A DNA stretch of 63,850 bases, counting the filler, from Folioceros fuciformis (taxonomy: Eukaryota), in the NCBI GenBank assembly GCA_049999805.1. It is 12 parts of 12 records of this genome, joined end to end, with 100 filler letters (N's around TTAATTAATTAA, not from the genome) between each part and the next. Parts side by side here need not be neighbours in the genome. Positions count along the whole stretch, not along the records: positions 40,062 to 44,380 come from JBNGIO010004900.1; 11 more parts are not named here. One strand, 5' to 3'. The translations under genes were made by a program, and so were the position numbers. Below the pieces are notes generated by a model that ran no database searches, was not told where the DNA came from, and saw only the letters and a list, made by a program, of their open reading frames with translations. Positions 1 through 47,400 of this stretch are shown piece by piece (the stretch's first letter is position 1; each line of letters opens with the position of its first letter).

Positions 1-47
1 TAAGAGGCCCTAATGAATAGTGCCCTAAATCTAGACTTATTTCATCA
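1..47 (-). repeat. Start of the 3' LTR of element A
   Basis: Exact match to 7673-7719; on the minus strand it is preceded by the polypurine tract. Confidence 0.95.
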
Positions 48-231
48 CTCCCACTCACTATGAATGCAGGGATGAATTCTAGCTTTTAAATGAGGCCTAT
101 AACATATATAAGCTCATAGGTGATGATAATTTAGGTAAAGAAAAGAAAAGAAAATAATACTATATGCATCTTATAGCATGGTGTGGCAAGATAGGGTGTC
201 AATATACCGGGGCTGTATCAGAACTCCGTAG

Positions 232-828: not shown

Positions 829-2219
829 ATGCTGAGGGTAGAGCGCGAGTGGATTGCTGCCACTCCTGTTGCTAATAAGCTGTATTTGAATTTGCTGTGT
901 GCAAAAGGTGAGTAGCCGCAACACTCCTTAATATTGCCTTTCATGTTGATAATGGTGGCAGGACCCCGTCGTGCGATGCATCACATGATGGAAAGTGAAA
1001 GTGCCCATGCCCCCCCCGGTGCATCGAGGGACGGGAAAAGAAAAAGGAAGACAAGCCGAAGGAAGAAATTAGCGGCAAGGAGGGAGAAAGGTGCCTTAAA
1101 CCGCCAAGCGGCGCATGCTCGCATCCTGGGATACGAGAAAATACCAACATCTGGTCCTGGGCGACATATAGAAGAGGGTGAAGATGACCCTAATTTTGAT
1201 GCTGATTTCTTGCATGTATGTGCCTTGGCTGCTAACACATGTGATGCCGAAGAAGTAGAAGAGGAGGATCTATTGGTGATCCAAACCCACATAGGGAACA
1301 CGGAAGTGGTAGTAAAGGAAATCAAAAATACCATAGAGGCTAGTAAGTAAATACTAAGCTGTAATAATAGCACCATATATATTGCTGAAGAATAATAAAA
1401 TTATCGAAAATGCAGCTGAAATCATAGGGCAGCAGCCGATAGCTCCCACTCTCCATAAGGACGGGATCCCAATAAATAAATGTGCTGAGGCAGCATCTGC
1501 AGAATATCCGGAATTCGACAACGTCGAAATAGAGGAAAAGTCGGAGGAGTCCGGGTATGCCGCAACAGATAATATAGACCCCAAGTCAGCGATATGTGAG
1601 GGAAGTCCAAGCTGGAGGTCATACCCTAGTGCTAATAGTCCTCTTGACAATGGGGAGATAATTAAAACGGAAACAGCAATGACAGAGGGAAATAATAAAA
1701 GTGAGTAGGAAAAGAGGTAAGGGTACAGATGGGTGCCAGAGAAAAATATGCTTCCTAACAAAATCTACTGTTGTTGCAGGTGTAGACAAATGTGTGGGCA
1801 CTGACCATCTAAGAATGGCTATACCAGTACCAATGATCCAAGGAAAAACAAACGGAAAAAGAAAAATACCTAAGTCCTTTTTACCAGCTGGGAGCCTATC
1901 TAAAGCTACCTATATGATATTTCCAGGGAAACCAGAGGATCATGAGGCTCCCATGGAATATGTGTGTGACAAAAAGGGAATAAAAATGATGTGGTTAGGA
2001 GCATCTCCGTGTGAAGAGTATGAAGGACATACAAAACACATATATAGTAAGGTTCCCAACGACTTAACTATGTTAGTTATCATCATTTTCATCTCTTAAC
2101 CAATTAACCTTAATGCAGGATCGTTTTGGGCACTAGAGAGAGAAGAAAGGGAGTACAGTGAAGATTACTTAGAACTAGAAGCTGAACTTGAAATGCTAGA
2201 TGACCTCTGTGGTTTATAG
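829..2219 (+). CDS. Antisense spliced accessory gene inside element A (370 aa from ATG 829, or 339 aa from ATG 976); basic NLS-like patch, acidic tracts, Cys/His domain
   Basis: Exons 829-907, 962-1342, 1416-1700, 1780-2046, 2119-2219. Introns of 54, 73, 79 and 72 nt, all phase 1, donors GTGAGT/GTAAGT/GTGAGT/GTAAGG, acceptors all GCAG. The spliced frame has no stop and joins track ORFs 934-1350, 1382-1708 and 1701-2099. Start codon uncertain. Confidence 0.8.
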
Positions 2220-5200
2220 TTAGGTTTGCTTAACTAATAGGTCAGTCATAACTTCACGGATGCCCAAAGTTTTCATATGTCTGAGGTGTAAATCCCTGCC
2301 TAATGACTTGGTTAATAAATCAGCTGGATTTTCCTGGGTTGGTTTATAATTTATATCTATTGTCTTATTTTCTAACATCTCACGTATGTAATGATACTCC
2401 ACAGCTATATGCTTTGTCCTGGAGTGGAAGACAGGGTTTCTAGCTAAAGCTATCGCTCCCTGACTATCACTGAAAAGAGGTGTGGGCTCATTTTGAGGAT
2501 AACACAACTCACTCAATGCTAGCCTACTCCAGACTATGTCCTTCGAGACTGAGGTTAGTACTCTATACTCTGACTCGGTACTTGACAAAGCAATAGTAGG
2601 TTGTTTCTTACTTGACCATGAGATGGGAGCACCTGCAAGTAGTAGGACGTAACCTGATACTGATTTTCGACTATCTGGGTCTCCAGCATAGTCAGCATCG
2701 GCATATGCCTTTATTTGTAACTTGGATATGCCTGATGTTTGTTTATATTTGAGCCCTGTGTGCATAGTCCCTTTGAGATACCTGAAAATCCTCTTGACGC
2801 ATTGCCAATGTTGTTTGCCAGGATTCTCCAAAAATTGTGAGACCGCACTAACTTCAAATGATATATCAGGTCTTGTGAAGTTACTCAAATAGATTAATGT
2901 ACCAACAGCGTGTCTATATGGTACTGCTGACATCTCGATTTTTTCAGCTTCAGTCTTAGGGCTCATTTGTAAAGTGAGCTTGATGCCACTAGGAAAAGGT
3001 GTGGCAGCGGGTTTAGCGTCTTCTAGTCCAAACTTGGCTAAACTCTCTTTTATATATTTTGTTTGAATTAGGGAGATAGATTTGTCATTTCTATCTCTAA
3101 TAATATTAACTCCTAAGGCATAGGTAAGTTCTCCCAAATCTGTCATTTCATAATGACTTCTTAACCAAGCTTTAATCTCAGCTAGGTGTGAAAGGGAGGA
3201 TGATGCCAAAAATAAATCATCCACATAAAGTAATAGATAAACTGTATTTTGTTTTGTCTTCAATATATATAAGCTTGCATCAGCCTTACTTTGAACAAAA
3301 CCATATGTAATCAGCTTATCATGTATTACATTGTTCCATTCCTTGCCAGATTGCTTTAAGCCATAAATGCCTTTTATTAATTTGCATACCATGTTTTCTT
3401 TGCCTTTAACTTCATATCCCTCAGGTTGCTTCATANNNNNNNNNNNNNNNNNNNNNNNNNNNNNNNNNNNNNNNNNNNNNNNNNNNNNNNNNNNNNNNNN
3501 NNNNNNNNNNNNNNNNNNNNNNNNNNNNNNNNNNNGAGCGGATAAGGCAATTATAATTCTGAGAGAGGCAAACTTAGCTACTAGAGCATAAGTAGCCCAG
3601 GGTATGTAATCTAAACCCGGTATCTGGGTAAAACCTCTGGCTACTAGTCTTGCCTTATATCTCTCAATGGAACCATCACCCTTTCGTTTAATTTTAAAGA
3701 CCCATTTACTCCCTACGATTTTTCTCCCTTTGGGTGGTTTAACTAATTCCCATGTAGAATTCTTAACTAGGGAATCATACTCAGAGTCCACTGCAGCTTT
3801 CCATAAGTCCTTCTCGGGAGAAGTGAAAGCTTGTTTAAGGGTCAGTGGCTCTTCAGGATCAATTGTAGCTTTGTAAACAGATTGATAAAAATGGGAGAAA
3901 GGTGAGGAGGGATCATCAAAAGTGGTGAGGTATCCTAAAGGTGGTTCCTTCCATCCTGCAGGGCCAGAAATAACAGGTCTGGTCCTTAGGTTGTACCTTG
4001 GTGCAGGTTGCTCTACGTCGTCGACGATTGGATTCTCTGTGTGTACAATATCTTCATGTGCTGGTTCTTGTAATGAAGGAACCAGTTCCTCAATATCCGG
4101 ATAGTCAGGCTCATAAATATCATCCAGGTGTTGAGGAATTTCCAGATCTGGATCTGGAGTAGTAGGTCGTCGCGGAGAAGATGGCTCCTCCTCCTCCTGC
4201 ACAATAGGTTCAACTGGAGGAGAGGAAGGAAAAGATTGAATGCTGATAAACTCATCATCATCAAAAGATGTGGGTACAGTATTGTCGTCAGGAACATAGA
4301 CAGAAGAGTAGGAGTCCACTGGGGAGAAGAGTGGAGATTCATGAAAAGTAACGCTGCGGGCATAAATGAGTTTCCTTGTAGCTGGATCAAATAACTTGTA
4401 TCCTTTAATACCTTCTGTATAACCAATAAAGGTGTACTTGGCAGCCTTATTATCGAACTTCTTACGCTGTGCTTTAGGAATATAAACATATGCCGTACAG
4501 CCAAAAACCCGAAGGTGGTCGATGGAAGGCTTTCTGCCAATGAATGCTTCATAAGGTGTCATACCCCGAACTGCTGAGGTGGGCAGTCGATTGAGAAGAT
4601 ATGTTGCCGTTATCATTGCTTCTGCCCAATATGGTTTAACTAACCGGGCTTGGGAAAGCAAGCAACCTGTTATCTCTTGAAGACGTAGATTCTTATTTTC
4701 TGCTACGCCGTTTTGCTGAGGGGTATAAACCACCGTGAATTGCTGAGCAATACCTTGAGCTCGACAAAAATCTGTAAAAGCATTAGAGATAAACTCGCCT
4801 CCATTATCGGAACGGAGGGTTTTGAGTTTCTTCTCTGTAAGTCGTTCTGCCCACATCATGTAATCCTTGAAGTATTGAAAAGCTTCACTTTTGTGCTTGA
4901 GGATTGTGGTAAAACGGGAATAATCATCAATAAAAGTAATAAAATATCTGCAGCCGCTGAAAGATGGTGCAGAAATTGGGCCACAAATGTCGGTGTGAAC
5001 CAACTCTAAGGGTACCTTGGCCCGCTGAGGAGAATTGTTTTTGAAAGGGGCTTGATGTCTTTTAGTAAGGACACAAGCTTCACACCATGATAATGGTTCT
5101 ATCTTTGGAAGGGAAGGGTGTCTATAAAGGTTTCCCTTAGACATTTGGACAAGCTTTTGGCTATTAGGATGTCCTAATCTACAATGCCAAAGTAAAGTAG

Positions 5201-6677
5201 TGTTGGACGTGATAGAGTTCTGAGAAGCTAAATTAACTCTATCATGTGATGATTCTACTTGGACTGCAAGTTTATATAACCCGTCCTCTATTGTGCCTGT
5301 GCAGATATTGAGAGATTCACTAGGAGAGTAAGTGAGAAGACAACTATCTGCATCTAAAATGACTTGTATGTTATGTTCTATGCATAAACAAGTAGCTGAC
5401 ACTAAATTCTTACACATGGCTGGTACATGAAGAACATTGGAAAGAACAAGGATTTGACCAGAAGAACATCTGAGTTTTATCGAACCTATACCAGAAATAG
5501 GAAGGTTATGATCATCACCTAATAAGACACTCTGATGTCCTGTAACAGAATTATAAGATTGATACAGACGTCTATTATTACAGATGTGTGCAGTGGCTCC
5601 ACTATCCAAGTACCAGTTTGGATTTGATGACTTTGATGAAGTCAAACATACAGTTAGAGCCGAAGGTGTTGTGGAAGATGTCTTCTTCACAGCTATATGA
5701 GCTCCAGGCGCAGCCTCTTTTCTAGGCTCACCATTTTTCTTCTTGTAACAGTCCTTCTCCAGGTGGTTTGGTATTCTGCACCAATTACAAATGATGCCTT
5801 TCTTCTTGGTACCTTTAGCAGGTGTTGAAGAAGAAGTCTCTCGTCTTCGAGAGTTGTCATTGGAAGTCTGGGGTCGATATGAAGTGGAACCTCGGCCTCT
5901 GCCTCGTCCTCTTCCATTACCCCTTCCAGTGAACATCACCTGTTGCTTATTGGTTCTGGAGTGTCGCCGACTTGATTCCTCTTGCATCAATGCTCCTATG
6001 AGCTCGGCGATGCTGAGCTTAATTTCTGCTTGTGGATTCTCATCTGCCTCACGTCTTGCATTACGGAGAACAGCATTTTGAGTTGTAACAAAAGCTCTAT
6101 AAGACGGCGGTAAAGATGATAGAAGGATAACATATGCTTCCAACTCATGGACAGGAATGCCACTTGCAGCCTCAAGTTGAGATCTTGCTAGTCGGAAATT
6201 ACTAATATGGCGTTCAATGGAATCGGACTCCTTCATTTGAAGGTTGCGGAAATTACGGGAGGCGGCAACAATACTCATAACATCCATGGAGGAGTAGAGT
6301 TGAGCAAGGTGAGTCCACATGTCGTGGGAGGTCTTTGCATGACCAACTTGTATCACCATCTGCTCCGAAAGTCCACTGATGATAAGGTCTTGTGCCTTCT
6401 CGTCCCTGACGTCCCAGGACGTTCGAAGGTGTACTTCAAATCTTTCAGTGGGTCTGGGAAGTCTTCCTTCGACTATGTCCCAGAGATCTCGTTGTCGCAA
6501 GGCTCCTTTCATCCGTATAGCCCAAACATAATAATTCTTTCCATTGAACCTATCCTTCTCTTTGAAGCTGTCACCATAATGATTAATCAAGGTATGATTA
6601 GAACTCCCAGAAGGATCCATCATGGGTGTATTTGGTGACGCTGAAAATTCTTCTTCAATATTAGATACTCCAGCCAT
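2220..6677 (-). CDS. Copia Gag-Pol polyprotein (Gag, CCHC knuckle, protease, integrase, RT, RNase H)
   Basis: CNWCRIPNHLEKDC knuckle; WYLDSGA protease; WHCRLGH..CEAC; integrase HTDICGP/RSDNGGEF/NGVAE; RT YVDD; RNase H DADYAGD, TESEY, ADLLTK. The 100-N gap at 3436-3535 lies in RT. Confidence 0.97.
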   Translation of the reverse strand: MAGVSNIEEEFSASPNTPMMDPSGSSNHTLINHYGDSFKEKDRFNGKNYYVWAIRMKGALRQRDLWDIVEGRLPRPTERFEVHLRTSWDVRDEKAQDLIISGLSEQMVIQVGHAKTSHDMWTHLAQLYSSMDVMSIVAASRNFRNLQMKESDSIERHISNFRLARSQLEAASGIPVHELEAYVILLSSLPPSYRAFVTTQNAVLRNARREADENPQAEIKLSIAELIGALMQEESSRRHSRTNKQQVMFTGRGNGRGRGRGRGSTSYRPQTSNDNSRRRETSSSTPAKGTKKKGIICNWCRIPNHLEKDCYKKKNGEPRKEAAPGAHIAVKKTSSTTPSALTVCLTSSKSSNPNWYLDSGATAHICNNRRLYQSYNSVTGHQSVLLGDDHNLPISGIGSIKLRCSSGQILVLSNVLHVPAMCKNLVSATCLCIEHNIQVILDADSCLLTYSPSESLNICTGTIEDGLYKLAVQVESSHDRVNLASQNSITSNTTLLWHCRLGHPNSQKLVQMSKGNLYRHPSLPKIEPLSWCEACVLTKRHQAPFKNNSPQRAKVPLELVHTDICGPISAPSFSGCRYFITFIDDYSRFTTILKHKSEAFQYFKDYMMWAERLTEKKLKTLRSDNGGEFISNAFTDFCRAQGIAQQFTVVYTPQQNGVAENKNLRLQEITGCLLSQARLVKPYWAEAMITATYLLNRLPTSAVRGMTPYEAFIGRKPSIDHLRVFGCTAYVYIPKAQRKKFDNKAAKYTFIGYTEGIKGYKLFDPATRKLIYARSVTFHESPLFSPVDSYSSVYVPDDNTVPTSFDDDEFISIQSFPSSPPVEPIVQEEEEPSSPRRPTTPDPDLEIPQHLDDIYEPDYPDIEELVPSLQEPAHEDIVHTENPIVDDVEQPAPRYNLRTRPVISGPAGWKEPPLGYLTTFDDPSSPFSHFYQSVYKATIDPEEPLTLKQAFTSPEKDLWKAAVDSEYDSLVKNSTWELVKPPKGRKIVGSKWVFKIKRKGDGSIERYKARLVARGFTQIPGLDYIPWATYALVAKFASLRIIIALSAXXXXXXXXXXXXXXXXXXXXXXXXXXXXXXXXXXMKQPEGYEVKGKENMVCKLIKGIYGLKQSGKEWNNVIHDKLITYGFVQSKADASLYILKTKQNTVYLLLYVDDLFLASSSLSHLAEIKAWLRSHYEMTDLGELTYALGVNIIRDRNDKSISLIQTKYIKESLAKFGLEDAKPAATPFPSGIKLTLQMSPKTEAEKIEMSAVPYRHAVGTLIYLSNFTRPDISFEVSAVSQFLENPGKQHWQCVKRIFRYLKGTMHTGLKYKQTSGISKLQIKAYADADYAGDPDSRKSVSGYVLLLAGAPISWSSKKQPTIALSSTESEYRVLTSVSKDIVWSRLALSELCYPQNEPTPLFSDSQGAIALARNPVFHSRTKHIAVEYHYIREMLENKTIDINYKPTQENPADLLTKSLGRDLHLRHMKTLGIREVMTDLLVKQT

Positions 6678-6687
6678 AGCAGGTGAT

Positions 6688-7263
6688 CTAGAGGACTAAG
6701 CCTCGGCGGTACAGCTTTCCATCTTCTCTATTGCAAGCTCGAAACTCCTCCCTTGCATGGTAACCTGCATCAGGAGATGATGACCTACTAGAAAGTTCCT
6801 GCACATCTTTGAATTTAGAGAGATTGGACACCCTTACCCCAAGTTCTGTTAGTTTTCTCTTGAATTCAAGATGTTGAATTGTTAGAGAAGATAATTCTCT
6901 ATCTAGGTCATGAATTTGGTGAGTTTCTATATTTTGGCCTTGTAGACAAAAGAATTTAGAAGCGTTAGCACCAGCTCTCAAATTAGGGATATGTTGAATA
7001 GCTAATTCTAAGGCCTTAACATGGATTGGGCTAAATACTTCTAGCAAATCACATCTAGCAAGCTTAATCAACTTCCCTTGGTCTGGTTTAGAAATTAGAA
7101 TAGATGCAATGAAGTTAGCTATGCGAGAAGATATCTCATCTATCTCTCTTGCTATAATTTGTGAACTTCTATTGCTCTTAATCCTAACTTGATCTTGTTG
7201 TCTTGCAGGGCAATTTCTTTTCCTAATTCTAGGCCTCCTCCTATTAAAATAAATCAAATTCAT
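6688..7263 (-). CDS. Extra sense ORF (191 aa) between PBS and gag; basic N-terminus, probably helical/coiled-coil
   Basis: ATG-initiated 191-codon frame in AT-rich DNA, ending 10 nt before the gag ATG. A similarly placed ORF precedes another gag at 52824-53357. Confidence 0.6.
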   Translation of the reverse strand: MNLIYFNRRRPRIRKRNCPARQQDQVRIKSNRSSQIIAREIDEISSRIANFIASILISKPDQGKLIKLARCDLLEVFSPIHVKALELAIQHIPNLRAGANASKFFCLQGQNIETHQIHDLDRELSSLTIQHLEFKRKLTELGVRVSNLSKFKDVQELSSRSSSPDAGYHAREEFRACNREDGKLYRRGLVL

Positions 7264-7454
7264 AAAGAGGAGACGAAGAATTAGTGCATATGAACATTAT
7301 GGGAAAAGAGATATTTGCATGAGAAGAAAACATAAGAGAGCAGCAATTATAAAAGAGACACAATCCATCTAGCGAGGTGCTAGATTGGAAAAGATGTCTC
7401 CTAGATGCGCTCCTTAAATGCTTAAAGCTGCACTTGCATAATGAAGAGCAAGAT

Positions 7455-7466
7455 GCTCTGATACCA
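7455..7466 (-). promoter_or_regulatory. Primer-binding site, tRNA-iMet
   Basis: TGGTATCAGAGC directly after the 5' LTR. Confidence 0.95.
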
Positions 7467-7719
7467 TGATGAAAATCTAGCCTTGCTCTTAGATGCAAAT
7501 CTTAGAATGTAATTGAATGTATATAAGAAGTAAAGTACAAGCCTTTATATAGGCTAGGTAGTTGGGCGGTTACAACTATAAGTGGTTGTAACCATAAGTA
7601 GTTGTAACCGTAAGTGGTTATAACCACTATAGCTAATAACTACCTAAATAACCCTAGGTAGATAATTAAAGGTAAGAGGCCCTAATGAATAGTGCCCTAA
7701 ATCTAGACTTATTTCATCA
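7467..7719 (-). repeat. 5' LTR of element A (253 bp)
   Basis: TG...CA ends with 8-bp terminal inverted repeat; TATA-like TATATAAA; internal 16-bp repeats of TAAGT(G/A)GTT(G/A)TAACC at about 7578-7625. Confidence 0.95.
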
Positions 7720-9865
7720 CCAATCCACCGACCACACTCGAGAAACACCCAAGCCCATCAAACTCGCTGATCAGCACCGCACTTCTGCCGCCTGAACTCA
7801 CTCCACTCTCCACCAACCTCTGGGGTCCCTTCTGCATCAAGACCAGGAACTCGGGTCGATTCAAGCGCTGTTCTTCATCATCTGCCACTCCACCCTAGTG
7901 CAGATTGCGCCATCTGTTAGCCCCAAACTCGGGAACCTCCCCACTATAACCATCATCGTGGCCTCCCCTCCCTGAAGGAGAGTGAGCAGTGCCTCCAGGT
8001 GTTCCATCTAGCAACATGTCGGACGCCCCACCGGAGAGGCGATGACCCAAAACTCCTTCTCTAGTCATTGAGCTCCTCCCATCCAGACGCGCATGCTCCC
8101 CTGGCCATCCCGACAGGCAGCTACCCACCACTCTAGTCGCGTCCTCTTGGCAAGGAGACGGCTCGGCAACAAGGTCCTTACCGCCTGAGGGGGATTTGAC
8201 CTGCAACTTGTAAGGCAGAGAATCACCTCATTTCCTAGCCTTCTTCGCCCCTACAACCTTCCGGTTCTTCCCGCCCAGGACCTAATTAGAACTCGCAGAG
8301 AGTGCTAGCACCTTGGCACCTGCACCTGATCGCGACGGTTCTGCAAGACGTGCTCCAAGGTGTTGGGGGTTATCTAGGCTTGCCTCCGTCGATGAGGAGG
8401 AGGTGCGCTTGGGGATACTCTTGAGCAACCCTGCCGACCCAAGGCCTGCCTCACTAAGATCCTTACCTCCTACCGGCCCGTTCCTTAAGTCACCTAAGGG
8501 TCTCTGCTTAGCAAAAACACCACCCTGCACCACCGCCTTTGCACCTGCCAACATCGTAAGATTGGATTCAGTGCTTATACTTGTCTTCACAGCACCCTGC
8601 ACCTGCTCCTGCTGGTCAAGACCACCCTACACCTGCTCCAGCTGGTCAAGACCTTCTTGTGGACCAAAATAATGGAAGGAAACCGGTTTTTGAAGCTCTA
8701 CATCCATCAGCACAGCCTGGTCTTCCTCCATGTCCTCCTTCCATCTGAGCTCCCATTCTCCTGGAAGCTTAATTGTAATCGGTGAGGTTAGCAATCCGAA
8801 GAAGCCCAGATGAGCCTTAAACACTATTCTGGTGGCAAGAGTGACCCGAACTCTGCCGAACTTAGCATCCTTGACTAAGGTAAGCACCTTCGACTCCCCC
8901 ATCCACTACGTTTGAGTTCAGCGAGAAAACATGACTTCGAGGGGAGCTTCACCCTAAACCCCATCCACTGCGGCTTGTTGGAGATCGGGATCCGATTCTC
9001 CCTCCCCAAGTCCAGCAATGTGCTGAAGTATGGAATCGCAGAGGAACCTTTGATTCTGTGACAAATTGCACTGAACCTAGCCTCCTTTAAAAGCTTGCAT
9101 GCGTACTCTTCCCCCGCACCCAGACCCTCTTGTACCATACTCATGGCCCTCAGCCTGACAGTCTCCCACAGCCCAGCCATACGAACTTCCTCTGCGATTC
9201 CTAGCTGCAGTGACCGAGTAGGTAAGGCTTGCAACTCCTCCCTTTTCGGCATCCAGAAGTAGAAGGTGTTCTCCACCTTCTTCCTCATGATGAAACAGGT
9301 TTTCACCTGGGTGATGGTTGCGTCAACAAGCCTTGGGAAGAAGTTTTCCTGGATTCGGCGAGCCCACCTCTACGTAGCCAAGTTAGCTCTCCAAGGCTTC
9401 TTCTGAATTCCTTGAAACCCCCGGTAGGGGTTCAGACTGTGTCTTCGCAGAGTTGACACTCCTGCCGCCTTCTAGACCTAAGCGAAGCGGACAATCTCGT
9501 TTAAGAAGGTTAGTCAGACCACATACTCCGCATCTAATAGGAAGACCAAGGTAATCAAAAAGTTGCGTGTAGCTCTTTGAGGAATCTGCCGAATAACAAA
9601 CCACCACCCCAGCGGGCAACGAGGAGAGGTTGTCTACTCTTACACCAAAGCGGGGCAGCTTGTTCCTGTCAAAAAACAGGGAGTCCACCTGTGGCACTTC
9701 AACCACCCGTCCAATGGTTTCCAACATCCTGTTGATCAGTGGAATAAGTTGCGTCAGTTAGGCAGGCAACCGCACTCAAACAAAGCGCCTCTTGATTTGG
9801 GACTGCATAATTGTACTGCCGAGAGACCAAGCCTCAACCATCATCGGGGTTGAGCCTCTGAAAAG
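7720..9865 (-). mobile_element. Decayed L1-type LINE ORF1 region (host site of element A)
   Basis: DUF4283-like end (VEAWS...FV*VRLP) followed by IGRVVEV...YLGLPIRCGVCGLTNLLKRDCP, a CX2CX4HX4C knuckle with His replaced by Leu; many stops. Confidence 0.7.
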
Positions 9866-17129: not shown

Positions 17130-17894
17130 TCACCGCTTGACCCGGCACTTCTTGGAAAGCAGACTTGGCCCCCCAGGGCTTCCAGGTGGAGAGATGACCA
17201 GGTCACAATCCACCCGGACCCAGAAGGCAAAGCTCTTCCACGATCCCACCTTCACTCTGGCTTTCACCCGAACTTGAGCCTTGATGGGCAGGCTGGCATT
17301 GGCGATGTCCGACAGCAGGCTCGTTGATATGCTCGGGTCGAGAGGCAAAGACGGGTTGTCCAGCTGTATGTTGAGTACGGTGATGTTCCGATGGCCTTGG
17401 TAGAAGCTGGGAACCGTCTGGTCTCCTATGGGAATCCCTTTGTAGAACAGGTTGATCCGAATACTGTCGTAGTAGATGCCAATCTTGGAATTGGGATTGT
17501 TGGCCTCCACATTGAAGATGAAGTTATAGTCAAGGCGAGGCGGAGGCGGCAACAGAACCGGAGCCAGCGCGTTGATCTCCACATTCTGCACCGAGTACTG
17601 CGGAGCCTTGGGCCGAAGCACCAGCCACACTACCAGGGCACCGATGCCTAGCAGGACCGCAATCGTCACCAGAGTGGTGCACAGCCAGCAGCAGCATTTC
17701 CGGCAAAATCTTCCCCCCTTCTTCTTACGGTTCCGTTCCCGATGCTGGGTTGCCGGGACAGGCAACGGAGAGCTGTCCTTCAGAGCCCGAGGGTCCTTGA
17801 TGTGATGGTAGGGCGGCCCGCTGCCGTCGTAGCGATGCGGAATCACTGACATATCCTCCTCGGGAAAGATGCGCTCGCCGGAGCCTCTACTCAT
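17130..17894 (-). CDS. NHL: NDR1/HIN1-like (LEA_2 domain) membrane protein, single coding exon
   Basis: CCCW followed by a TM helix, LVLRPKAPQYSV, NPNSKIGIYYD, PSFYQGHRN, C-terminal V.CDL...C.V. Confidence 0.93.
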   Translation of the reverse strand: MSRGSGERIFPEEDMSVIPHRYDGSGPPYHHIKDPRALKDSSPLPVPATQHRERNRKKKGGRFCRKCCCWLCTTLVTIAVLLGIGALVVWLVLRPKAPQYSVQNVEINALAPVLLPPPPRLDYNFIFNVEANNPNSKIGIYYDSIRINLFYKGIPIGDQTVPSFYQGHRNITVLNIQLDNPSLPLDPSISTSLLSDIANASLPIKAQVRVKARVKVGSWKSFAFWVRVDCDLVISPPGSPGGPSLLSKKCRVKR

Positions 17895-18329
17895 GAGTCC
17901 TCAACGCCAATACTCCTGCCCCTCGCACGGTCCTGTCCCCTCAATGATCCCTGAGTAAGCTGATCCTCCGGGAGCCCTCTTCAATCCTGACCTCCTCACG
18001 ACGTCAATTGAAGATGTGGCAAACCCGAGAAGACCTGTGCTAGAATACGAAACGAGGAGCAACCTATCCCCTCCGTGATCAGCTGTATCAAGATAGGCTG
18101 AGGAGAAGGAGGAGCGATCTTGGAGGAGACTTGCCGCTGGGAGACAACACGAGCGTGGAACTTTTGAGGGGCGGGTGATCTAATCTGGACGAACACTGGC
18201 GATGACAAAGGAATGAAAACTCTGAAATCACACGCAGGGTGACCTTAGGTCGGGTGCAAGAAGGGCCCACGGATACGAAAGCGGAAACAAAAGCGCGGAG
18301 CTTAAAACCGATGAGATTCCAGTTGTTGT

Positions 18330-18596: not shown

Positions 18597-20010
18597 ATGC
18601 AGCAGGGAAGGCCGGCACTCGATTTTGGGCGAGGGCTCCAGGAATTTGCGCACAGCGCGGGGGAGGTGTGGCGCAATTTCGCGCACTCTGTTTCTCGCGC
18701 TCTGGAATTGGACGAGGAGGCGGGGGAGAGATGNNNNNNNNNNNNNNNNNNNNNNNNNNNNNNNNNNNNNNNNNNNNNNNNNNNNNNNNNNNNNNNNNNN
18801 NNNNNNNNNNNNNNNNNNNNNNNNNNNNNNNNNTCTCCAGACGGGATCGGCAGCGGAGGCTTAGAGACGTCTCGGCAGTAGACGGCAGGCTGGTGCAGGA
18901 TGTGCAGGATGCGCGGGAGGCGCGGATTGTGGACGCGGAGAGGAGGAATGTGGGAGGGGAGGTGAGCCAGCAGCTGAGCTCTGTTTCCGCGGCGAGCGGG
19001 ATGGGGATGCTGGTGGTGCCGCAGGACGCGGAGGTGGAGGTGAGTTTGCTTGAATTGAGTAGGTTTGTTTTGTCTTTGGTGTGTGGGCATTGTCACGTCG
19101 CTCACGCGCTCTGGTTCTCTTGTGTGGCGTCAGTCGAGGTCGGGGAATGCGGTCAGTAAGGAGGAGCTGGGCCGCGCTACCTGGACTTTTCTGCACACGC
19201 TTGCCGCTCAGGTCCTAGTCAGTGCTTGTGCTGCTGAGTTGAGATGATGAGTTGTGAGTGATGATGGTGAGCTATGACGGGCTTGAGCAGCAGCGTCTCT
19301 CCACAGAAATCAGGTTGCCGATTCTGTCAGCTTGTCTTGTCTGCATCCTGCTTAGTGTTTCTGTCTGCTGCTACGTGACGGGTAGGGTTTTTCAAACCCT
19401 CATTGCCTCCTGCTCGTGTTTCATCAGTTTCCTGATAAGCCGACTCGACAGCAGCAGCGGGATGTGAAAGAACTGGTGAGTAGGGACATGCTGCTATGCT
19501 CGTCCAGTTTCATCATTGGTACGCGACTCTTCGCTGTGCTGACGAGGCCTTTCTAGGTGCTGACGTTTTCTGTTCTGTAGATGCTCATCTTGTCGAGGAT
19601 GTATCCTTGCAAAGTGTGCGCGGATCACTTCAAAGATGTGTTGAAGTAAAGGACCACTGTTTTCGCATGCGGCCTCTGCTTTCATTCGTGGTTTCCGGTC
19701 CTTCCGAGCTGACAACTTTTGTGTTCCTCTCAGAACGAATCCGGTACAGGCAGGGTCAGGGGCAGACCTCGCCCAGTGGATGTGTCGTGTCCACAACGTT
19801 GTGAACAGAAGGTACGAGCTTGGTGCTCTTTGTTTTGCGCCTGCTTTGTCGTCCAGTGCAAGTAGGATGTTTTGAGGGCCGCTGAAGCTTTGTCTTTTTC
19901 TCAGCTTAGGCAAGACTCAGTTTCCCTGTAGACGAGTAGACGCCCGATGGGGGGCGTTGGAGTGTGACGAGGGTGCCTGTGACTTGGAGGGTCGGATTTA
20001 CAGAAAGTAG
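18597..20010 (+). CDS. ERV1: FAD-linked sulfhydryl oxidase Erv1/ALR, plant type
   Basis: Exons 18597-19039 (spans an N gap), 19134-19211, 19428-19475, 19581-19645, 19734-19811, 19905-20010. Motifs KEELGRATWTFLHTLAAQ, redox YPCKVC, structural CX16C (WMCRVHNVVNRSLGKTQFPC), C-terminal shuttle CDEGAC. Confidence 0.95.
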
Positions 20011-33340: not shown

Positions 33341-34607
33341 ACTTCCTTAACCTTTTCCTAATTCATGCTTCCGTTTTGTTCCCACCTTAGGAAAGTTCAC
33401 AGGATCGCATATCCAATATGACCCCTCAGCGTTGGTCTCGCCGTCGCCGACTTCGAAATCGCTCGCAGGGAGGGGAACTCCAGCGAGGGCCTCTCCATCT
33501 GCAAGTAGACCTGTTTGGGGAGAGTGGGTGCGTGGGAACGCTTCCCTTTGCCGTCCTTCTCTGGTAGGTCGAGAAGGGTTCGTTCTTACATCGGTAGGTT
33601 CCGAGACCGGATCCCCAAAGATCGAGAGCTCACATGCTCCCCTCCCCATCTGTTTGCGTCCTCGCAAACAACACGACCTGTGGATGATAATACTTCTTTA
33701 CCTTCCACCCACTGACATGGGTGGGTAAGAATTCTCCATTCAGCTCCCGTAGCTGAACCGACCCGTTTTCAAAAACATGGGTCACTTCATAGCGTCCCAT
33801 CCATCGGAGTCGTAACTTCCCAGGGAAGTCAAGGTACCGGCTGTCATAGAGCAATGCTAAGTCACCCGGAACGACGCGTTCCGTCTTCCTCAGTCTCCTG
33901 TCATGATGCCACTTTCGTCGTTCTTGTACTCGGTGAGTCTCTTCGAGTGCTGCGTCGCGATCTTCCTCATGCGCAATGAGCTTCTCTAGCCGAGCTTGTT
34001 GACTATCTTCGACCGGTAACCGAGTGTCCTCCAAAATCCTGTGGGTTGGTACTTCGAACTCGATGGGCATAACTGGCGACATCCCATAGGTCAGAAAATA
34101 GGGAGTGCATTTCATAGTTACCTTCTCTGCTGTTCGGTAGGCCCATAGGGCAAAATGTAGTTTCGTATCCTAGTCATACATGTGGGAGACAGTCACCTTG
34201 GTGAGTATCGTCCCCAACAGCCCATTGGTCTTCTCCGTCAGCCCATTGGCCTTGGGGTTGTATAGAGTCGTTTTCTGGTGTCGAATGTTGAAGTAGCAGG
34301 TGAGCGATGCTATAACCGTGTTCAGAAAATGAGTCCCGCGATCGCTCGCCAGCTCCAACAGACACCCATACCTAGTGATGATATTTTCGAATAGGAATTT
34401 GGCCACGGTTGATGCATCGTCCTTGCGGGTAGCCTCTGCTTCAACCATCTTCGTGCAGTAGTCGGTGGCAACCAAAATATACTGTTTACGTGTCCGCTGT
34501 GTTGGAGGACGTATGGGTCCGACGAAGTCTATTCCCCATTTTTCGAAGGGTGCCAAGGGCAAAATATAGGTTAGGGGCCACTACGTGCCTAGGGTCAGTC
34601 TCCCAAG
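33341..34607 (-). mobile_element. Non-chromovirus gypsy integrase, PPT and 3' LTR start
   Basis: FEKWGIDFVGP, SDRGTHF, NGLTEKTN, GKLRLRWMG; PPT at about 33637-33648, then TGTGAG at 33634. Left boundary approximate. Same family as 44481-47623. Confidence 0.85.
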
Positions 34608-40061: not shown

Positions 40062-40560
40062 CCACCCTGATCATCCTATTTAATCTAGCCTTATATAACA
40101 TAGTTTCCTAATTACCTCTCCAAGGAATTCTATCAAAACTCCAAGAAAAACAAATACCACCCATTTTCTAAGAGTCCTATCTACCATGTGGTCTCCACAC
40201 CCTATAATTGACATTTATTCCCTCACGAATCTCCATGTAGATGGTGTGATCAAGATCCTCATGTAGAAAAAGTTGTCTTGATGTCAAGTTGCATTAACTT
40301 ATAATCGTGGTGAGATGCTAAAGCTAAGAGAATCCTATGTGAGGTTATCTTGAGTATGGGATGAAAAGTTTCATCGTAGTCAAAACCATACTTATGAGAA
40401 TATCCCTTTGCCATTAGTCTAGCTTTGTATCTTTTTATGCTACCATCTGTATTTAACTTAATCTTAAAAGTCCACTTGCAACCCACTAATTTTCTATCGT
40501 TAAATAGGCTAGTTAAGGTCTAGGTCTTATTAGCTTTTCAATCACCTATCTTACAAAATT
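40062..40560 (-). mobile_element. Old copia RT fragment
   Basis: GCKWTFKIK...RYKARLMAKGY...QLDIKT. Confidence 0.8.
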
Positions 40561-40672
40561 TATAGCCAATTAAGGCATGAAATAACCACAACTTTTGTCC
40601 TTCCCCTCTCTTCAAGATATAACTACTTTCAGTGCCTTGGTGTAACACCTCTAGCATCTTTGGCTTTTGCAA

Positions 40673-40762
40673 GCAGGTTGCAGCCTTCCAAGTTAGCATG
40701 TTGCAGCCTTCCAAGTTAGCAGGTTGCAGCCTTCCAAGTTAGCAGGTTGAAGCCTTCCAAGT
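40673..40762. repeat. 23-bp tandem repeat, 4 copies
   Basis: GCAGGTTGCAGCCTTCCAAGTTA. Confidence 0.92.
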
Positions 40763-41041
40763 CTGTTTCCTTTTTGGAGAATCTTCAAAGTCATTGTCCA
40801 ATTTGAGTAAATGGCCTTGAAATGTGGACAATGCATCATTAGCACATTTTCGTGCTTGCAACTATTTAACTTGGAGAAGCAACATAGTTTTGTTGCATGA
40901 GTATGCTCAAGCAAGGAAGCATTACTGTGCACCATTCCCTACACTTCTTTCCACATATTTTCCAAGCTCTAGTATGAAGCAATTAACAAATATTGGATTG
41001 GATTGGTGTAGACCAATTGCTATAATAAACAATCACATTAT

Positions 41042-42410
41042 TGATAAAGAGAATATTACAATAAGAGCACTATGTTAAAGTGGCTCACTCAACTTAAGTT
41101 GTTGTGAAGAGACATAACCTTCCATTAAGGGACATGACTCTTAATGAAGGGGCAATTAAAATGATAATCATAATAACCCTGTACACACATACTATAAATG
41201 CTAACATTACTAAAACCTAATAAATCAGCACCTATTCTCATCACTCCCACTTGCCCATTATTATGGGTCGGTCAGTCTTCTCCTTCGCGAATAGCCTGTG
41301 GAGACTCTGAGTTCAGCTAGGCTTCTTGCTTGAGCGTGTGTGTGTACCCTGTGTGGCATAGGCTCCCAATGGAGCGGGACAGTTTGAAGTTAGCTCTGTA
41401 TAGGTTTGCTATTTTAGTAGCTCTTGTTTACGCCCCATGCCTTATAGCGGCTAGGCTCATAGGGCACAGCCTCAACACCTCAAAGAACATGGCGTCTTCA
41501 GGATCTGAGGAAAGCGCGTCTTCTACGAAGTGGCGTTTTTACCAACGGAATCAGTTCGGGCGCTTCCCAGCAGTGGCAGCTAGAGCAACTGCCTTTGTGG
41601 AAGGCGCAAGAGCGCATCAATCTGCACAAACAGCAAGATAGAGTACAAGGAGAGCAAGCAGCTCAGGACGGCCGTGAGGGACACCTCGAGGCACCACCAG
41701 GGCTGTGCTTGAAGCAAGACGCCAGGAACCTGCATCAGGGACAGCAGCAGTGACGGCGGCTACTGCATCTTCTCATCATACCCGCTTGACTTCAGGCTTC
41801 AAGACTGGTCAATCTACAGCGGCTGCGCAACAGCCTCAATCCCGCACAACGCCGACTGCTTCCATGGGAGGTCTGAGGGATAGGTCCAGTGAAGAAGTCC
41901 ATTCAAGGGCTATAGTGGAAAGACGGCGCTACAATCGTGGTGAGTTTGAGTATGCCGATTCTGACCAGCGCCCTCCTGTTCCGCCCTGGTTCCCAATTCC
42001 TGCATGTATGATGTCAGAAACGAGAATCGTAACCCCTGGCAATTGGGAGACACCTGGAAGTCCTCTCTGGTACAGGTGCTCCACTACTGGATTGGTGATG
42101 AAACGAATTGAGCTACAGCTATGTCGGGAATACAAGGATCACATTATCAACGTCTATAGTAAGTCCTCACACCAACTCTCATATGTTCTTCTGCACTTTA
42201 AAAACAGCCAATATAGGCCTATCTACTTTACCTGGAAAGGTCCTAACCCCTTGCTGACCTGTGTCGATTGCCTGTGAACCATACTCCCACTATCCTTCAA
42301 GCAGGGTCTGAAGATAGATTGGAAGAAGAGAATAGTCTTGAAACAAAAGAGAGACTTTCTTATCACGAGAGGAGGAAAAGGTTTTCTCCTCGCGATGAGA
42401 ATGAGACTTT
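41042..42410 (-). mobile_element. 3' part of an element A-like copia (element A2): 3' LTR 41042-41243, PPT, antisense-gene region
   Basis: PPT/LTR junction AAGTGGGAG|TGATGAGA, compared with AGTGGGAG|TGATGAAA in element A; truncated by the insertion at 42411; its own pol is not in the window. Confidence 0.75.
41489..42410 (+). pseudogene. Antisense accessory gene of element A2, homolog of 829-2219
   Basis: Track ORFs 41330-41641 and 41705-42277 share one frame, broken by TAG 41639 and TGA 41675. Domain 41981-42157 aligns with 1869-2045. Phase-1 donor GTAAGT at 42159; probable acceptor at 42304. Confidence 0.72.
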
Positions 42411-44380
42411 TGTTAAAATCCTAGCAGTAGGATTGCATCTAATCTAGCATGATTAGGATTGCATCTAGTCTAACATGATCAAGGTGCAATGCTCAGAGAG
42501 ATATTTCGTGTTAGTCTCTAAAAAGTGTATACAAAGTGTGTCTTAAATAGTATCACTAGGTGTCTCTTCCGAAGAGGCACACCCGTTTGTAATTATTAAC
42601 TACTATTAATTACGGTCTACGGTAACTAGCTAGTCAACAGGGTTACGGGCAGATTATCCATTCCATAACACTCTCTCTTAAGCTGAATGTAACCTGACAA
42701 GTGATGGAGGCTATCTCCCATGGAGTGCGACACTCCTCTTTGATATGCTCCCTCTGAAGGCTAATGAGAGCCCGTACATGCCGCCTTGAGGCACGGCACT
42801 GAAGGGGCACAGGTCAGGATTTCTAGTCCTGAAAAGGTAGCATGACCCTCTTGAAGCAAGCATCTTAAGGTGGCCTTGCTTCAGCGGCTAAGTCATGGAG
42901 ACCAGGTTCTTGCCCATTTATGGGACTAGGAGCACAGGCTCCAAGGTAAGCACCGAACCGTCCTCGAGGGGAAATTCGCAAGTGCCTTGTCCCATGATTG
43001 GTAGGTTGGATCTACTCTATTCGTCACCAAGTAACACCCTTTCCTTGAGAGGACGAGTATCCAGCTTGGTGAATAGAGTACGATTGTTGCATATGTGGGC
43101 AGTGGCTCTACTGTCGAGATACCACCCCGCATCCTGATGCAACTGGGTGTTGAGGCAAGTCGTAAGTATCTTTACGGTTCTTGTCTCCACTGTGTTGGCG
43201 TTCCGCTTAACACCAATACTCGCTACCTGTCACAAGTCAGCCTTCTGCGGCTCTCCGGCCTCTTTCTTGCTGCACTCTTGTGCCCAATGGCCGGCAGCTC
43301 CGCACCAATTGCAGTTTCCAGCTCGGCAAGGAGGGGCAACAGTTGAATCAGCTTTAGGGGTGAAGTTTGCCTCGCCCTTCAAATTCCTCCCGAGTTTGAG
43401 GCGAGTGGAAAGCGCCCTGTCTGCTTTGGGCTTGGACCCTCCTGCAGAACATAAGTGGCTCTGCTCCTGCTGATACAGAGCACCGTTGATGTCCTCCACT
43501 GTTAGGGTGGGGGCGGTACCTGCCTTACCCTAAGTTGATACCAACATCAGGCTGGTAACAAAATTGTGGTAAGACGGTGGTAAGCTCATTAGCAGCTGTG
43601 CAGCGGCATCGGTCTCCGACATGGTTGAGCCAAGGGAGGCGAGCTGCCCTCGCAGCTGTGTGAACTTCAAGGTGTGAGCAGAGATCGTATCTGTCTCCTT
43701 CATCCTTAAGGAGTTGAATTCCTGCCTTATACTATACAAGGTTAGAACATTGCTAACATTGTAGGTGTTAAACAACTGGTCCCAGATGGCAGATGCATCT
43801 GAGAGAAATTCAACACTAGGCACAAGACTTGAATCCAGGCCGCTGATCAAGAGTGCCACAACTATCCCATTCAAATAGTCCCATCTCTCAACGACGGCGA
43901 CTGGCGGGGGGTGGAGTGGCAGAAGGGTCGGGCTTTGGAAGGGTGCCGTCGACGATCTTCCAAATGCCTCGGCCAATAAGGATTGACTTCATCCGAACGC
44001 GCCACACAGGGTAGTGTTGGCCGTTAAATCAGTCTTTCTCTCTAATGTGGTCGGTGAAGACGGGAATTGAGCCGGTGGAGGGAGTACTAGCCATGGTAGC
44101 CAATGGCATAAGCGAAAGGGTTGTATAAGTTGATTCACCATGTCTCCGTAAGTTGTGGTCATAGGACATCAAGTTGAGTCCTCATCATGGGCTGTTGGTG
44201 TGGCAGGTGAACGAAAAAACAAGGGGTCCAGAGATGCCGGTCGCTCTGTCGGGGAGACGGGCTCGATCTTCACCTATGGGCAGAGTTCGCCTACCTGGTT
44301 GTTTGTAAATGCAGCAAGTGTGGGGCCTCCAAGATAGGTTGAGGTGTGAGGGCGGGTTTGAAACTGAACCGGTTCAAAGG
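42411..44380 (-). mobile_element. Gag-protease-only copia derivative (TR-GAG-like): 3' LTR 42411-42670, PPT 42671-42680
   Basis: Gag from ATG 44094 (EKD*FNGQHYPVW..RMK), CNWCGAAGHWAQEC, protease WYLDSRATAHIC, then PPT TAAGAGAGAG and a TGTTA...TAACA LTR; no INT, RT or RH. Confidence 0.8.
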
Positions 44381-44480: not shown

Positions 44481-47400
44481 AAGGACTCGAGGGTCAGGGA
44501 GGCACTCGCTGCTTCCTCCTTCCTCCTTGTCCCGATCTCTAGTACACCCCAAACCCCGAAGCCCAAGGTGGACTTTGGGTATAAACACCCTGGTCTTACT
44601 CGCTTACTAAGCCGATTCGCCTGTCCCTTCACAAAAGGAATCACAACCTGCTCATTCTGTCGCTCAAAATGGGGATTCCGAAAGTTTTTTTCGTTCACAG
44701 TCGATCTAGATGCTGTGGAGGACATGGAGTTGGCTCCAGGGAACAAGGTCAAGGTGTCCAAGTAACTCACACCCAAGGAGAAGGTTGGTTTGAAGGCACT
44801 ATTGACTGAATACTTGGATGTGTTTGCCTTCAAGGCGACGGATAACAGGTGTTCCGGAGGAGCTCGGTGTTCATAGGATAGATCTCAAGGAGGGAAGCAC
44901 ACCGGTTTGGGTGAAGCAATACCGACTGAACCCAAAGTACTCCATGGTTGTCAAGGAGCAGTTGGGTCAGTACTTGGAGGCTGGAGTCATCTATCTTGTC
45001 CTAACTAGTGAGTGGGTAGCTTCAATTGTGGTGGTGCCTAAGAAGCAAGCTGGCAAGGTGAGGGTTTGCCGGGACTTCAGGAAGCTCAATGAGGCGACCA
45101 AGAAAGACCATCATCCACTCCCTTTCATGGACAGTGTGCTGGACATAGTTGCTGGACATGAGATGGATAGTTTCCTAGATGGGTATTCAGGTTACAATCA
45201 AATCACACTGCGGGAGGAGGATCGTGACAAGACAACTTTCACAACAGATTGGGGGACCTACGCCTACACCAAGCTGCCTTTTGGGCTCTGCAACGCTCCA
45301 ACAACTTTCTAGTGGGTGGTGAATACCATTTTCAAGGAGTTCCTTCGGAAGTTCATGGATGTGTTCTTGGATGACTTTTGTGTCTTTGGGAGGAGGGCCC
45401 TACACTTGGAACAACTGAGGAAGTGCTTATAGAGGTGTAGGGAGACTAACCTCAAGTTGCATCCGGGGAAGTGTTTCTTTTGCATGACGGAGGGTATCTT
45501 GCTAGCCCATAGAGTTTCAGCTAGGGGGTTGCAAGTCGACATGGAAAAGGTTAAGATCATCTCGGAGATGGATGCACCTCAGAGCATGAGACAGGTTAGA
45601 GCCTTCATTGGGTTGGTGGGCTACTACAAGAGATTCATCAAGGATTTCGCTAAGAAGGCTGCAGCTTTGACCCAGCTTACAAAGAAGGATGTGTCGTATG
45701 AGTGTACCTCGGAGAGGGAGGAAGCGTTTCAGGATTTGAAGAGGAGTTTGGTGGCAGCACCCACATTGAGCCCACCAAATTGGGAGAAGACCTTTCATGT
45801 GTATGTAGATGTGTCAGCCTATGATATAGGGGCCATCCTCAGCCAACAAGATGACAAGAAGAGGGATCACCCTATCTTCTATGCTGGAAGGCAACTCACG
45901 GATGTAGAGAGGAACTACTCCACAACGGAGAGAGAGGCTTTGGGCATCATCTACTCTTGTAAGAAGTTCCGTCACTACCTTCTAGCTTGCAAGGTAGTGT
46001 TTCATGTGGACCACTTTGCTTTGAAGTATCTTGTGAACAAGCCTAACCTATCGGGGAGGATCGCTAGGTGGATTCTCTTGCTGCAAGAGTTTGATTTTGA
46101 GGTGGAAACTAGGGCGAGGAAGAGTCATGTCAATGCTGACTTTGTTTCTAGGCTCAAAACCAAAAGGAAGGTTAGAGAAATGGATGACAGGTTCCTGATG
46201 AGGAGCTGATTGCTGCTATACATACGGTAGAAGAGGGAGAGTTCGATGAACAGGTTGCCAGTGAGGGAGGAGGAACCTCTACAAGGGTTGAGAGCAGCCA
46301 GAAGGTCAGCCAGGCTCGGAGGAAGAGAAGCCGCCGTAGCGACAGGTTGGGAAGGCCTTGTGCTAGGTAGTTGCTACCAGTTGAGGTGAGGAGATTTCTG
46401 GAGTTTGGAATCATGCTAGCTGGATTGAGCCACGAGGGTAGGGCAATGTTCTTGCACAAGACAGGCCCATATTGTTTGAAGCAAGGGGTCTTGTACAAAC
46501 TAGGTCCGGATGGTAAGGTGAGGCGTTGTTTGGAGGTGAATGAAGGTGCTTTGGTGATCGAAGCTTTGCATGTGGAAGAGGCGGGAGGCCACTATTCAGT
46601 CCGCATTACCATCAACAAGATCTTGGATACAGGGTTTTGGTGGGCTACCATGCAGAGGGACGTGTGGGAGTTTGTAAGGAGGTGTAATGCTTGTCAAAGG
46701 GTAGGGAGATCCACATTGACAACCAGGTGGCTGTTGACCTACATTCTGCCATTGGTTCTGTTCGAGAAGTGGGGGATCGATTTTGTAGGGCCAATTCGTC
46801 CACCTACTCGCTGGACAAGGAAGCAATACATCTTAGTGGCGACGGACTACTGCACCAAGATGGTGGAGGCAGAGGCTACCCGACGGGATGATGCCCCAAC
46901 AATGGCCAAATTCCTGTTTGAGAACATCATCACACGCTATGGATGTCCGTTGGAGTTGGTCAGTGACAGGGGGACACATTTTCTCAATGAAGTCATCATT
47001 GCCTTGACCACCTACTTCAACATCCGTCACAGGAAGACCACTCCTTACAATCCGAAGGCGAAGGGGTTGACAGAGAAGACCAATGGTCTTTCGGGGACTA
47101 TCTTGATCAAGGTGACTGTGACTCACATGTATGATTGGGACACCAAGTTGCATTCAGCACTTTGGGCTTACAGGACAACAAAAAAATCGCCACGAAGAGG
47201 ACTCCATACTACTTGACCTCTGGTATGTCGCCTATTCTTCCCATTGAGTTTGAGATTCCCACTCACCGTGCTATGGAGGAGGCTAGGCTGCCGGTAAAGG
47301 AAAGCCAAGAAGCTAGGTTGGAAGCTTTCATTACCTACGAGGAGGACTGAGAAGAAGCCTTGGAGGAGACTCACCGGATACAAGAGCAAAGGAAAACCCG

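Follow-up and report, generated by a model that had tools for sequence, protein, structure and literature searches.

We identified, in two diverged families of LTR retrotransposon from Folioceros fuciformis, a protein domain that is encoded opposite gag-pol, beside the polypurine tract (PPT), and is homologous between the families by sequence comparison. Our preferred interpretation, to which we give a probability of about 70%, is that the two families (elements A and B) belong to one Ty1/copia group whose ancestor had an antisense gene with spliceosomal introns between pol and the PPT, and that this gene has been kept by selection. One ancestral copia element would have gained a gene opposite its gag-pol strand, and A and B would both have inherited it. 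We call the two descendants gene A and gene B; the coordinates of all features are collected in Table 1.

The window, that is the whole stretch of DNA that was analysed, is 63,850 nucleotides long (filler included) and is assembled from parts of 12 records of GCA_049999805.1. Beyond position 26518 (26519-62235) it is made of short contigs chained by spacers of 44 N, TTAATTAATTAA and another 44 N. Because these joins are artificial, pieces that are neighbours in that part of the window are without physical linkage. Plain gaps of 100 N are found at 3436-3535, inside the reverse transcriptase (RT) of element A, and at 18734-18833. The window also contains a host gene with an open frame for a LEA_2 (late embryogenesis abundant/NDR1-like) domain at 17133-17900 (- strand; E 9e-15), which is in keeping with a land-plant source, and a plant LINE zf-RVT. 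There are two related gypsy-type pol remnants, at 33633-34580 (-) and 44806-47213 (+), which have RT, RNase H and integrase-like translations and share 72% DNA identity across 650 bp.

Element A is a Ty1/copia element. The Pfam families Retrotran_gag_2, Pol_BBD, gag_pre-integrs, rve, SH3_retrovirus and RVT_2 were matched in this order in one frame, which is the copia order of gag, protease, integrase, RT and RNase H. Direct LTRs with TG..CA ends, a primer binding site (PBS) and a PPT are present, the 3' LTR being visible over 47 bases only. The PBS, TGGTATCAGAGC, is presumably complementary to initiator tRNA-Met. The element looks intact and young, given its uninterrupted frame of 1491 codons and LTR ends that are identical across the 48 visible bases. 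A second open frame, of 202 codons, was found on the sense strand between the PBS and gag (6691-7296, -; first ATG at codon 12). It shares a few bases with the beginning of gag-pol and had no Pfam match, and it may represent another extra gene, of the 5' sense type.

The pol-to-PPT region of element A (56-2219) contains gene A. This gene is on the + strand, opposite gag-pol, between the PPT (48-55) and the pol stop (2220), and thus has the position that defines an aORF-3R: coding, on the opposite strand, between the pol stop and the PPT. Its four exons join into 1053 bases (350 codons and a stop) in a single frame with no internal stop. The three introns, of 73, 79 and 72 nt, are all in phase 1 and have canonical GT..AG ends, with acceptors that end in TGCAG. 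Since the stop of gene A (2217-2219) touches that of pol, the two genes converge tail-to-tail. The predicted product is charged (12.6% K+R and 17.7% D+E), with acidic runs and a Glu-rich last exon. We expect that the gene would have a promoter of its own, situated in the ~900 bp that separate the PPT from the ATG. Two 42-bp tandem copies (232-314, +) and a very GC- and CpG-rich stretch (~480-760, +) are found in this interval, and the region that they mark is a candidate for the promoter or 5' UTR of gene A.

Locus B is in a 4.3-kb contig (40062-44380; JBNGIO010004900.1). A preliminary description of this DNA had proposed that a second, divergent element carries a homologous antisense gene at 41489-42410. 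The homologous domain is indeed there, but the gene has two in-frame stops (41639-41641 and 41675-41677), both between the ATG at 41489 and the domain, and the last exon is truncated at 42410/42411. From 41678 on, the reading frame is uninterrupted, with the next ATG at 41864. The copy of gene B in the window is decayed, interrupted and dead. The same description had raised the question of whether such genes always lie antisense between RNase H and the PPT; this position is shown for gene A only, as the pol of element B is not in the contig. Nothing pol-like was found in the minus frames of 42160-42410. The copia class of element B rests on its LTR end, PPT and PBS, because its own pol is outside the 4.3-kb contig. 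To the left of the element B LTR there is an RT fragment of another copia element (40313-40531, -; 47% identity to residues 979-1053 of element A), and there are three 45-bp tandem repeats at 40672-40762. Degraded older repeats may have been the site at which element B inserted.

The interruption of gene B is due to a third element, element C, which is inserted at 42410/42411 and cuts the last exon. By tblastn, residues 40-490 of the element A polyprotein match 44058-42726 with 31% identity, from gag to pre-integrase. The remnant stops ~45 bp short of the element C PPT, and this copy is without integrase core, RT and RNase H. We also considered that element B might be an internally deleted element that owns the gag at 42726-44058. 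This was ruled out by the LTR boundaries in contigs from DNA runs: with boundaries at 42411-42670, the gag-protease remnant is part of the nested element C, not of B. In one other copy, represented by a single X4 contig, the reverse complement of the PBS TGGTATCAGAGC lies to the left of 42411, and to the right of 42670 the copies differ from one another. The pol of element B would lie past element C and past the end of the contig.

Table 1. Features of elements A, B and C and of the antisense genes, in positions of the window.
Feature	Position	Strand	Boundary evidence or remark
Element A 3' LTR, first 47 bases, begins TGATGA, runs off window	1-47	-	1-48 100% identical to 7673-7720
Element A polypurine tract AGTGGGAG	48-55	-	sequence
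Gene A exon 1, ATG at 943, basic KRKRK..RRKK cluster and acidic runs; donor A/GTAAGT, phase 1	943-1342	+	
Gene A exon 2; donor A/GTGAGT, phase 1	1416-1700	+	
Gene A exon 3, contains the 59-residue domain (1869-2045); donor A/GTAAGG (2046/2047), phase 1	1780-2046	+	
Gene A exon 4, begins RS, Glu-rich; stop 2217-2219	2119-2219	+	
Element A gag-pol open frame, 1491 codons (gag, protease barrel, integrase, RVT_2)	2220-6695	-	
Element A primer binding site TGGTATCAGAGC	7455-7466	-	sequence
Element A 5' LTR, 253 bp, TGATGA...TCATCA	7467-7719	-	directly followed by TGGTATCAGAGC
Element B 3' LTR, ~260 bp, begins TGATGA	40984-41243	-	left edge from other copies with PBS there (loose ends 40986)
Element B polypurine tract AGTGGGAG	41244-41251	-	sequence
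Gene B upstream exon, first ATG 41489; domain 41981-42157; donor A/GTAAGT (42158/42159), phase 1	41489-42158	+	
Gene B intron, 146 nt, GTAAGT...AGCAG	42159-42304	+	
Gene B last exon, begins RS, Glu-rich, truncated by nested insertion	42305-42410	+	
Element C LTR, TGTTA...TAACA, 260 bp, high depth	42411-42670	-	loose ends 42409-42413 and 42670 (DNA-run contigs)
Element C PPT AAGAGAGAG	42671-42679	-	precedes element C LTR on minus strand
Element C gag-protease-pre-integrase remnant, with stops and frameshifts	42726-44058	-	

The two loci have the same anatomy around the domain. Both genes are antisense beside an identical PPT/LTR junction, AGTGGGAG/TGATGA, and both read away from it. The 14-mer AGTGGGAGTGATGA is found exactly twice in the window, at 42-55 (-) and at 41238-41251 (-); by our own arithmetic, the chance of a second exact match in 128 kb of two-strand sequence is ~5e-4. 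Both domains end with a Tyr codon and one further base, followed by GTAAG (phase 1), and the next exons both begin with Arg-Ser and are Glu-rich. The antisense position just inside the PPT/LTR junction, the shared phase-1 A/GTAAG donor and the RS/Glu-rich next exon had all been pointed out in the preliminary description, and each was recovered at both loci. The PPT/LTR junction, the LTR length (~255-260 bp) and the TGGTATCAGAGC PBS tie families A and B together. The upstream parts of the genes are unlike, A having two further coding exons and B one long frame from the ATG at 41489. Outside the domain and the tail nothing aligns between the A and B regions, and the LTRs of A, B and C gave no meaningful alignment past their first bases.

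We compared the 59-residue segments encoded by 1869-2045 and 41981-42157 (both +). They align without gaps with 16 identities in 59, at the coordinates first reported, with an in-register BLOSUM62 score of 72 and a Smith-Waterman score of 76. Among 5000 shuffles, none reached a Smith-Waterman score of 76 (maximum 58), none reached 16 identities (maximum 12) and none reached the ungapped score (maximum -1), so the alignment is significant by the shuffle test on which the preliminary description had made it depend. BLASTP of the 88-residue exon pieces of A and B gave an E value of 1e-07. In tblastn searches of the six-frame window, A found B at E 6.0e-05 and B found A at E 3.2e-05, and the next matches had E values of at least 1. 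A profile built from the two segments detected the two loci and nothing else in the window (E 1e-39 and 2e-38; next 0.18). Of the 36 frame pairs of the two pol-to-LTR regions, the +/+ pair scored 92 and the runner-up 58. Chance similarity between unrelated stretches might be suspected for a match of 59 residues and 27% identity that was picked by eye from a 64-kb window. We give this explanation almost no weight: the shuffles, tblastn, the frame pairs and the codon-position statistics described below are all contrary to it, and it would call for three further independent coincidences, namely a shared 14-mer at the junction, the same intron phase and a next exon that is RS/Glu-rich in both.

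The pattern of nucleotide identity is that of a conserved protein. Identities at the first, second and third codon positions are 31/59, 29/59 and 15/59 (Fisher p 0.0013 for positions 1+2 versus 3), and shifted registers have 41-50 identities overall in 177 positions. Counting by the Nei-Gojobori procedure gave pS 0.92 and pN 0.49. With third positions at the random level, synonymous sites are saturated while the protein has been kept. The remaining five frames carry stops over the domain at both loci, including the sense frames, and therefore a sense-strand ORF cannot explain the pattern of constraint. Judged by these comparisons, the A and B segments are homologous and the domain has been under purifying selection at the protein level since the two families split. 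This bears out the earlier proposal of protein-level conservation despite strong divergence of the DNA. The codon-position pattern also bears on the possibility that the antisense RNA is the functional product, for instance by giving rise to double-stranded RNA through which silencing is adjusted, and that the open frame is incidental. Such a role has been proposed for antisense transcription of LTR elements, in the excerpt of PMC7264820 available to us, but it predicts neither a three-base periodicity nor one open frame out of six. We regard it as quite improbable as a replacement for a protein; an antisense RNA could act beside one.

Contigs from DNA runs of the same organism were compared over 40062-44380. 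Summed word depth was 10-13 over the flank (40638-40925) compared to 43-131 over the gene region (41502-42365), position 41987 in the domain exon was covered by up to 10 distinct contigs, and contigs that are ~83-86% alike extend across 41667-42365. In other copies, the TGGTATCAGAGC PBS adjoins the B-type LTR. Element B is a multi-copy family. Transitions make up 74% of the differences in X1 contigs (478 of 646 places). C>T and G>A dominate, with 291 of the 646 places in X1 (40062-44380), an excess that would fit decay of methylated repeats. Among the 12 of 63 length differences that are listed, all 6 within 41157-43450 are at 42203-42213, inside the gene B intron, and the other 6 lie outside 41157-43450. 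Among the 40 of 730 base differences that are listed, 4 are in the domain exon, 3 of them residue-changing and 1 silent; at that fraction of the total, the silent and replacement counts of B paralogs say little.

We searched for relatives of the domain in several collections. Exons 1-3 of gene A and the domain ORF of gene B matched no Pfam family at E ≤ 1. The domain profile had two matches among 1.84 billion protein representatives, both to long bacterial repeat proteins; these are spurious, as they were matched in many short stretches. The library does not hold the window's own ORFs, and we estimate that a 59-residue relative needs ~45 bits to be detected in it. Segments A and B, which match at 31-33 bits, would miss each other under these conditions, so the blank is a weak one and its reach is limited to fairly close relatives of the domain. 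PDB sequences gave one match, at E 5.9, and the ESM Atlas gave no usable match. Scans with the domain alignment yielded 142 pattern matches in metagenome contigs and 33 in viral contigs, none of which was confirmed. None of 38 copia RNase H loci from metagenomes (32-54% identity; 21 with at least 1 kb downstream) had the domain or another exon of the gene, the best E values being 0.16 by tblastn and 0.31 by hmmsearch. The preliminary description had allowed that the homologs might turn out to be a known host gene family captured independently; no such family was matched in Pfam, PDB sequences or the 1.84 billion representatives. So far, the domain is found in two families of one genome and in several diverged B-type contigs from DNA runs, a range that does not support the earlier suggestion of a lineage-wide domain. 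As for transcripts, no sequencing run that is recorded as RNA contains element A. In one run guessed to be RNA, depth was zero over 41358-42365 and no joint matched the intron at 42159-42304.

These results can be set against the idea that part of a host gene, picked up by an ancestral element in a single capture, has since been neutral cargo, the similarity between A and B being leftover ancestry. Capture of genes by LTR elements is known (PMC7264820, in the excerpted part), the introns suggest an origin from genomic DNA, gene B has decayed, and no RNA cover was found for gene A among the runs recorded as RNA or for gene B in the run guessed to be RNA. Neutral cargo should have decayed evenly, however, and instead third positions are random (15/59) while first and second positions are ~50% identical. 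In addition, the frames are open over the domain at both loci, with the 350 codons of gene A intact, and no host relative was found in Pfam or, within the reach of fairly close relatives, among the 1.84 billion representatives. We therefore consider neutral cargo unlikely.

It is also conceivable that two elements separately captured paralogous host genes, which would account for the different upstream structures (two extra exons in A, one long exon in B) and for the lack of alignment outside the domain and the tail. Two captures would not be expected to arrive at the same PPT/LTR junction, the same orientation and the same intron position and phase, and no host paralog was found among the 1.84 billion representatives or by the profile search of the window. 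We judge this explanation to be very improbable. Inheritance from one ancestral element, the interpretation we prefer, would also accommodate the introns. Being antisense to the genomic RNA, they would not be a substrate for splicing and would be reverse-transcribed and copied with the element. From the established replication cycle, we infer that the position of an antisense intron can in this way stay conserved between families of retroelements. A conserved antisense intron also makes two captures of processed transcripts less likely.

Antisense extra ORFs between pol and the 3' LTR (aORF-3R or eORF-3'R) have been described in Ty3/gypsy elements of the Tat group, with maize Grande gene23, rice RIRE2, Silene Retand and bean pvRetro ORF2 as examples; in the excerpts available, the gypsy carriers include 15 bean families as well as Tat lineages, with PMD, Transposase_28 or coiled-coil features (PMC7264820, PMC11963269, PMC4093653, PMC4408406). 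Gene A resembles these ORFs in being on the opposite strand between pol and the PPT/3' LTR, and gene B does so on the side of the PPT, where it can be seen. As with the gypsy ORFs, the domain is common to related families and has no clear database relatives. A coiled coil at the C-terminus or a nuclear product is known from some gypsy aORF-3Rs, and the gene described here has a Glu-rich tail and a basic cluster. Unlike the gypsy ORFs, it is carried by Ty1/copia elements and is divided into four short exons rather than being one long ORF. Unlike the eORFs of Tat/Retand/Ogre elements, exons 1-3 of gene A and the domain ORF of gene B had no match to PMD (PF10536) or Transposase_28 (PF04195). The pol-to-LTR region is ~2.2 kb in element A, compared to the 2.9-6.6 kb given for Retand in the excerpted sources.

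For copia elements, the excerpts of the same papers report that 63 of 65 bean families have the polyprotein only and that two have sense env-like ORFs (PMC7264820, PMC11963269, PMC4093653, PMC4408406). The REXdb survey lists 582 copia elements with extra ORFs, in 45 similarity groups, and recorded their position and orientation; its filter kept uninterrupted ORFs of at least 250 codons, and the one ORF taken up in the excerpted text is the sense ORF of SIRE (PMC6317226). The gene described here is likewise coding capacity outside gag-pol, but its longest exon frames are ~140-200 codons, so the 250-codon filter stated in the excerpt would miss it. The threshold in another survey, again as excerpted, was an ORF longer than 600 bp (PMC11963269). 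The literature that we searched, with subscription journals and supplements outside its reach, did not describe any copia element with an antisense gene that has introns.

The env-like ORF of SIRE1-type copia elements (Sireviruses) is on the sense strand, is unspliced in the DNA and encodes a predicted membrane protein. It is similar to the gene described here in being an extra gene between pol and the 3' LTR of a copia element. The gene described here differs from it in being antisense, in having introns and in its charged composition, and the sense frames over the domain are closed. Outside plants, the mRNA of the retroviral antisense gene HBZ is spliced. HBZ of HTLV-1 and APH-2 of HTLV-2 (cited in the excerpt of PMC11963269) are similarly encoded opposite gag-pol near the 3' LTR. 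The genes described here, unlike these, have a plant host and, in exons 1-3 of gene A and the domain ORF of gene B, no bZIP or other Pfam match, and the analogy is functional only.

What the product might do can be considered from its composition. It was suggested at first that the domain is possibly metal-binding. The candidate ligands conserved in A and B are C33, C48 and H54 only; four spaced Cys/His ligands or a zinc-finger match would be expected of a zinc-binding domain, and with three ligands and no match in Pfam or PDB neither was found. An AlphaFold2 model of the 88-residue exon, made from a two-row alignment, had a mean pLDDT of 36.7 and a pTM of 0.22; it is unusable at this confidence, and no fold supports any function. 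Its composition, with a basic cluster in exon 1, acidic runs and a Glu-rich tail that is probably helical, is the basis for a tentative suggestion, made by analogy and on balance doubtful, that the product could be a small nuclear accessory or regulatory protein that influences, in trans, how the element itself is expressed or silenced. Parallels would be the nuclear product of Grande gene23 and the antisense proteins of deltaretroviruses, as presented in the excerpts of PMC7264820 and PMC11963269. The broader proposal is that a multi-exon antisense gene with a domain without detectable relatives was present in copia elements before the families diverged, was selected for service in trans (as a nuclear regulator or in counter-silencing), and is the first of its kind for copia in the literature searched. 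We regard this combination as possible, at somewhat below even odds.

In plants, nothing comes closer to the accessory genes of retroviruses than the extra genes of LTR retrotransposons, and we know of none among these extra genes with an established function. Antisense extra genes have so far been described mainly for gypsy elements, to which all the examples named in the excerpted literature belong, and here one is found in copia. Because this copia gene is split into short exons, surveys based on ORF length can miss a whole class of such genes. An intron position that is conserved in a retroelement is a marker of inheritance with the element, as opposed to pickup of a cDNA. Element A is a concrete candidate in which the role of an antisense accessory protein in a retrotransposon may be probed.
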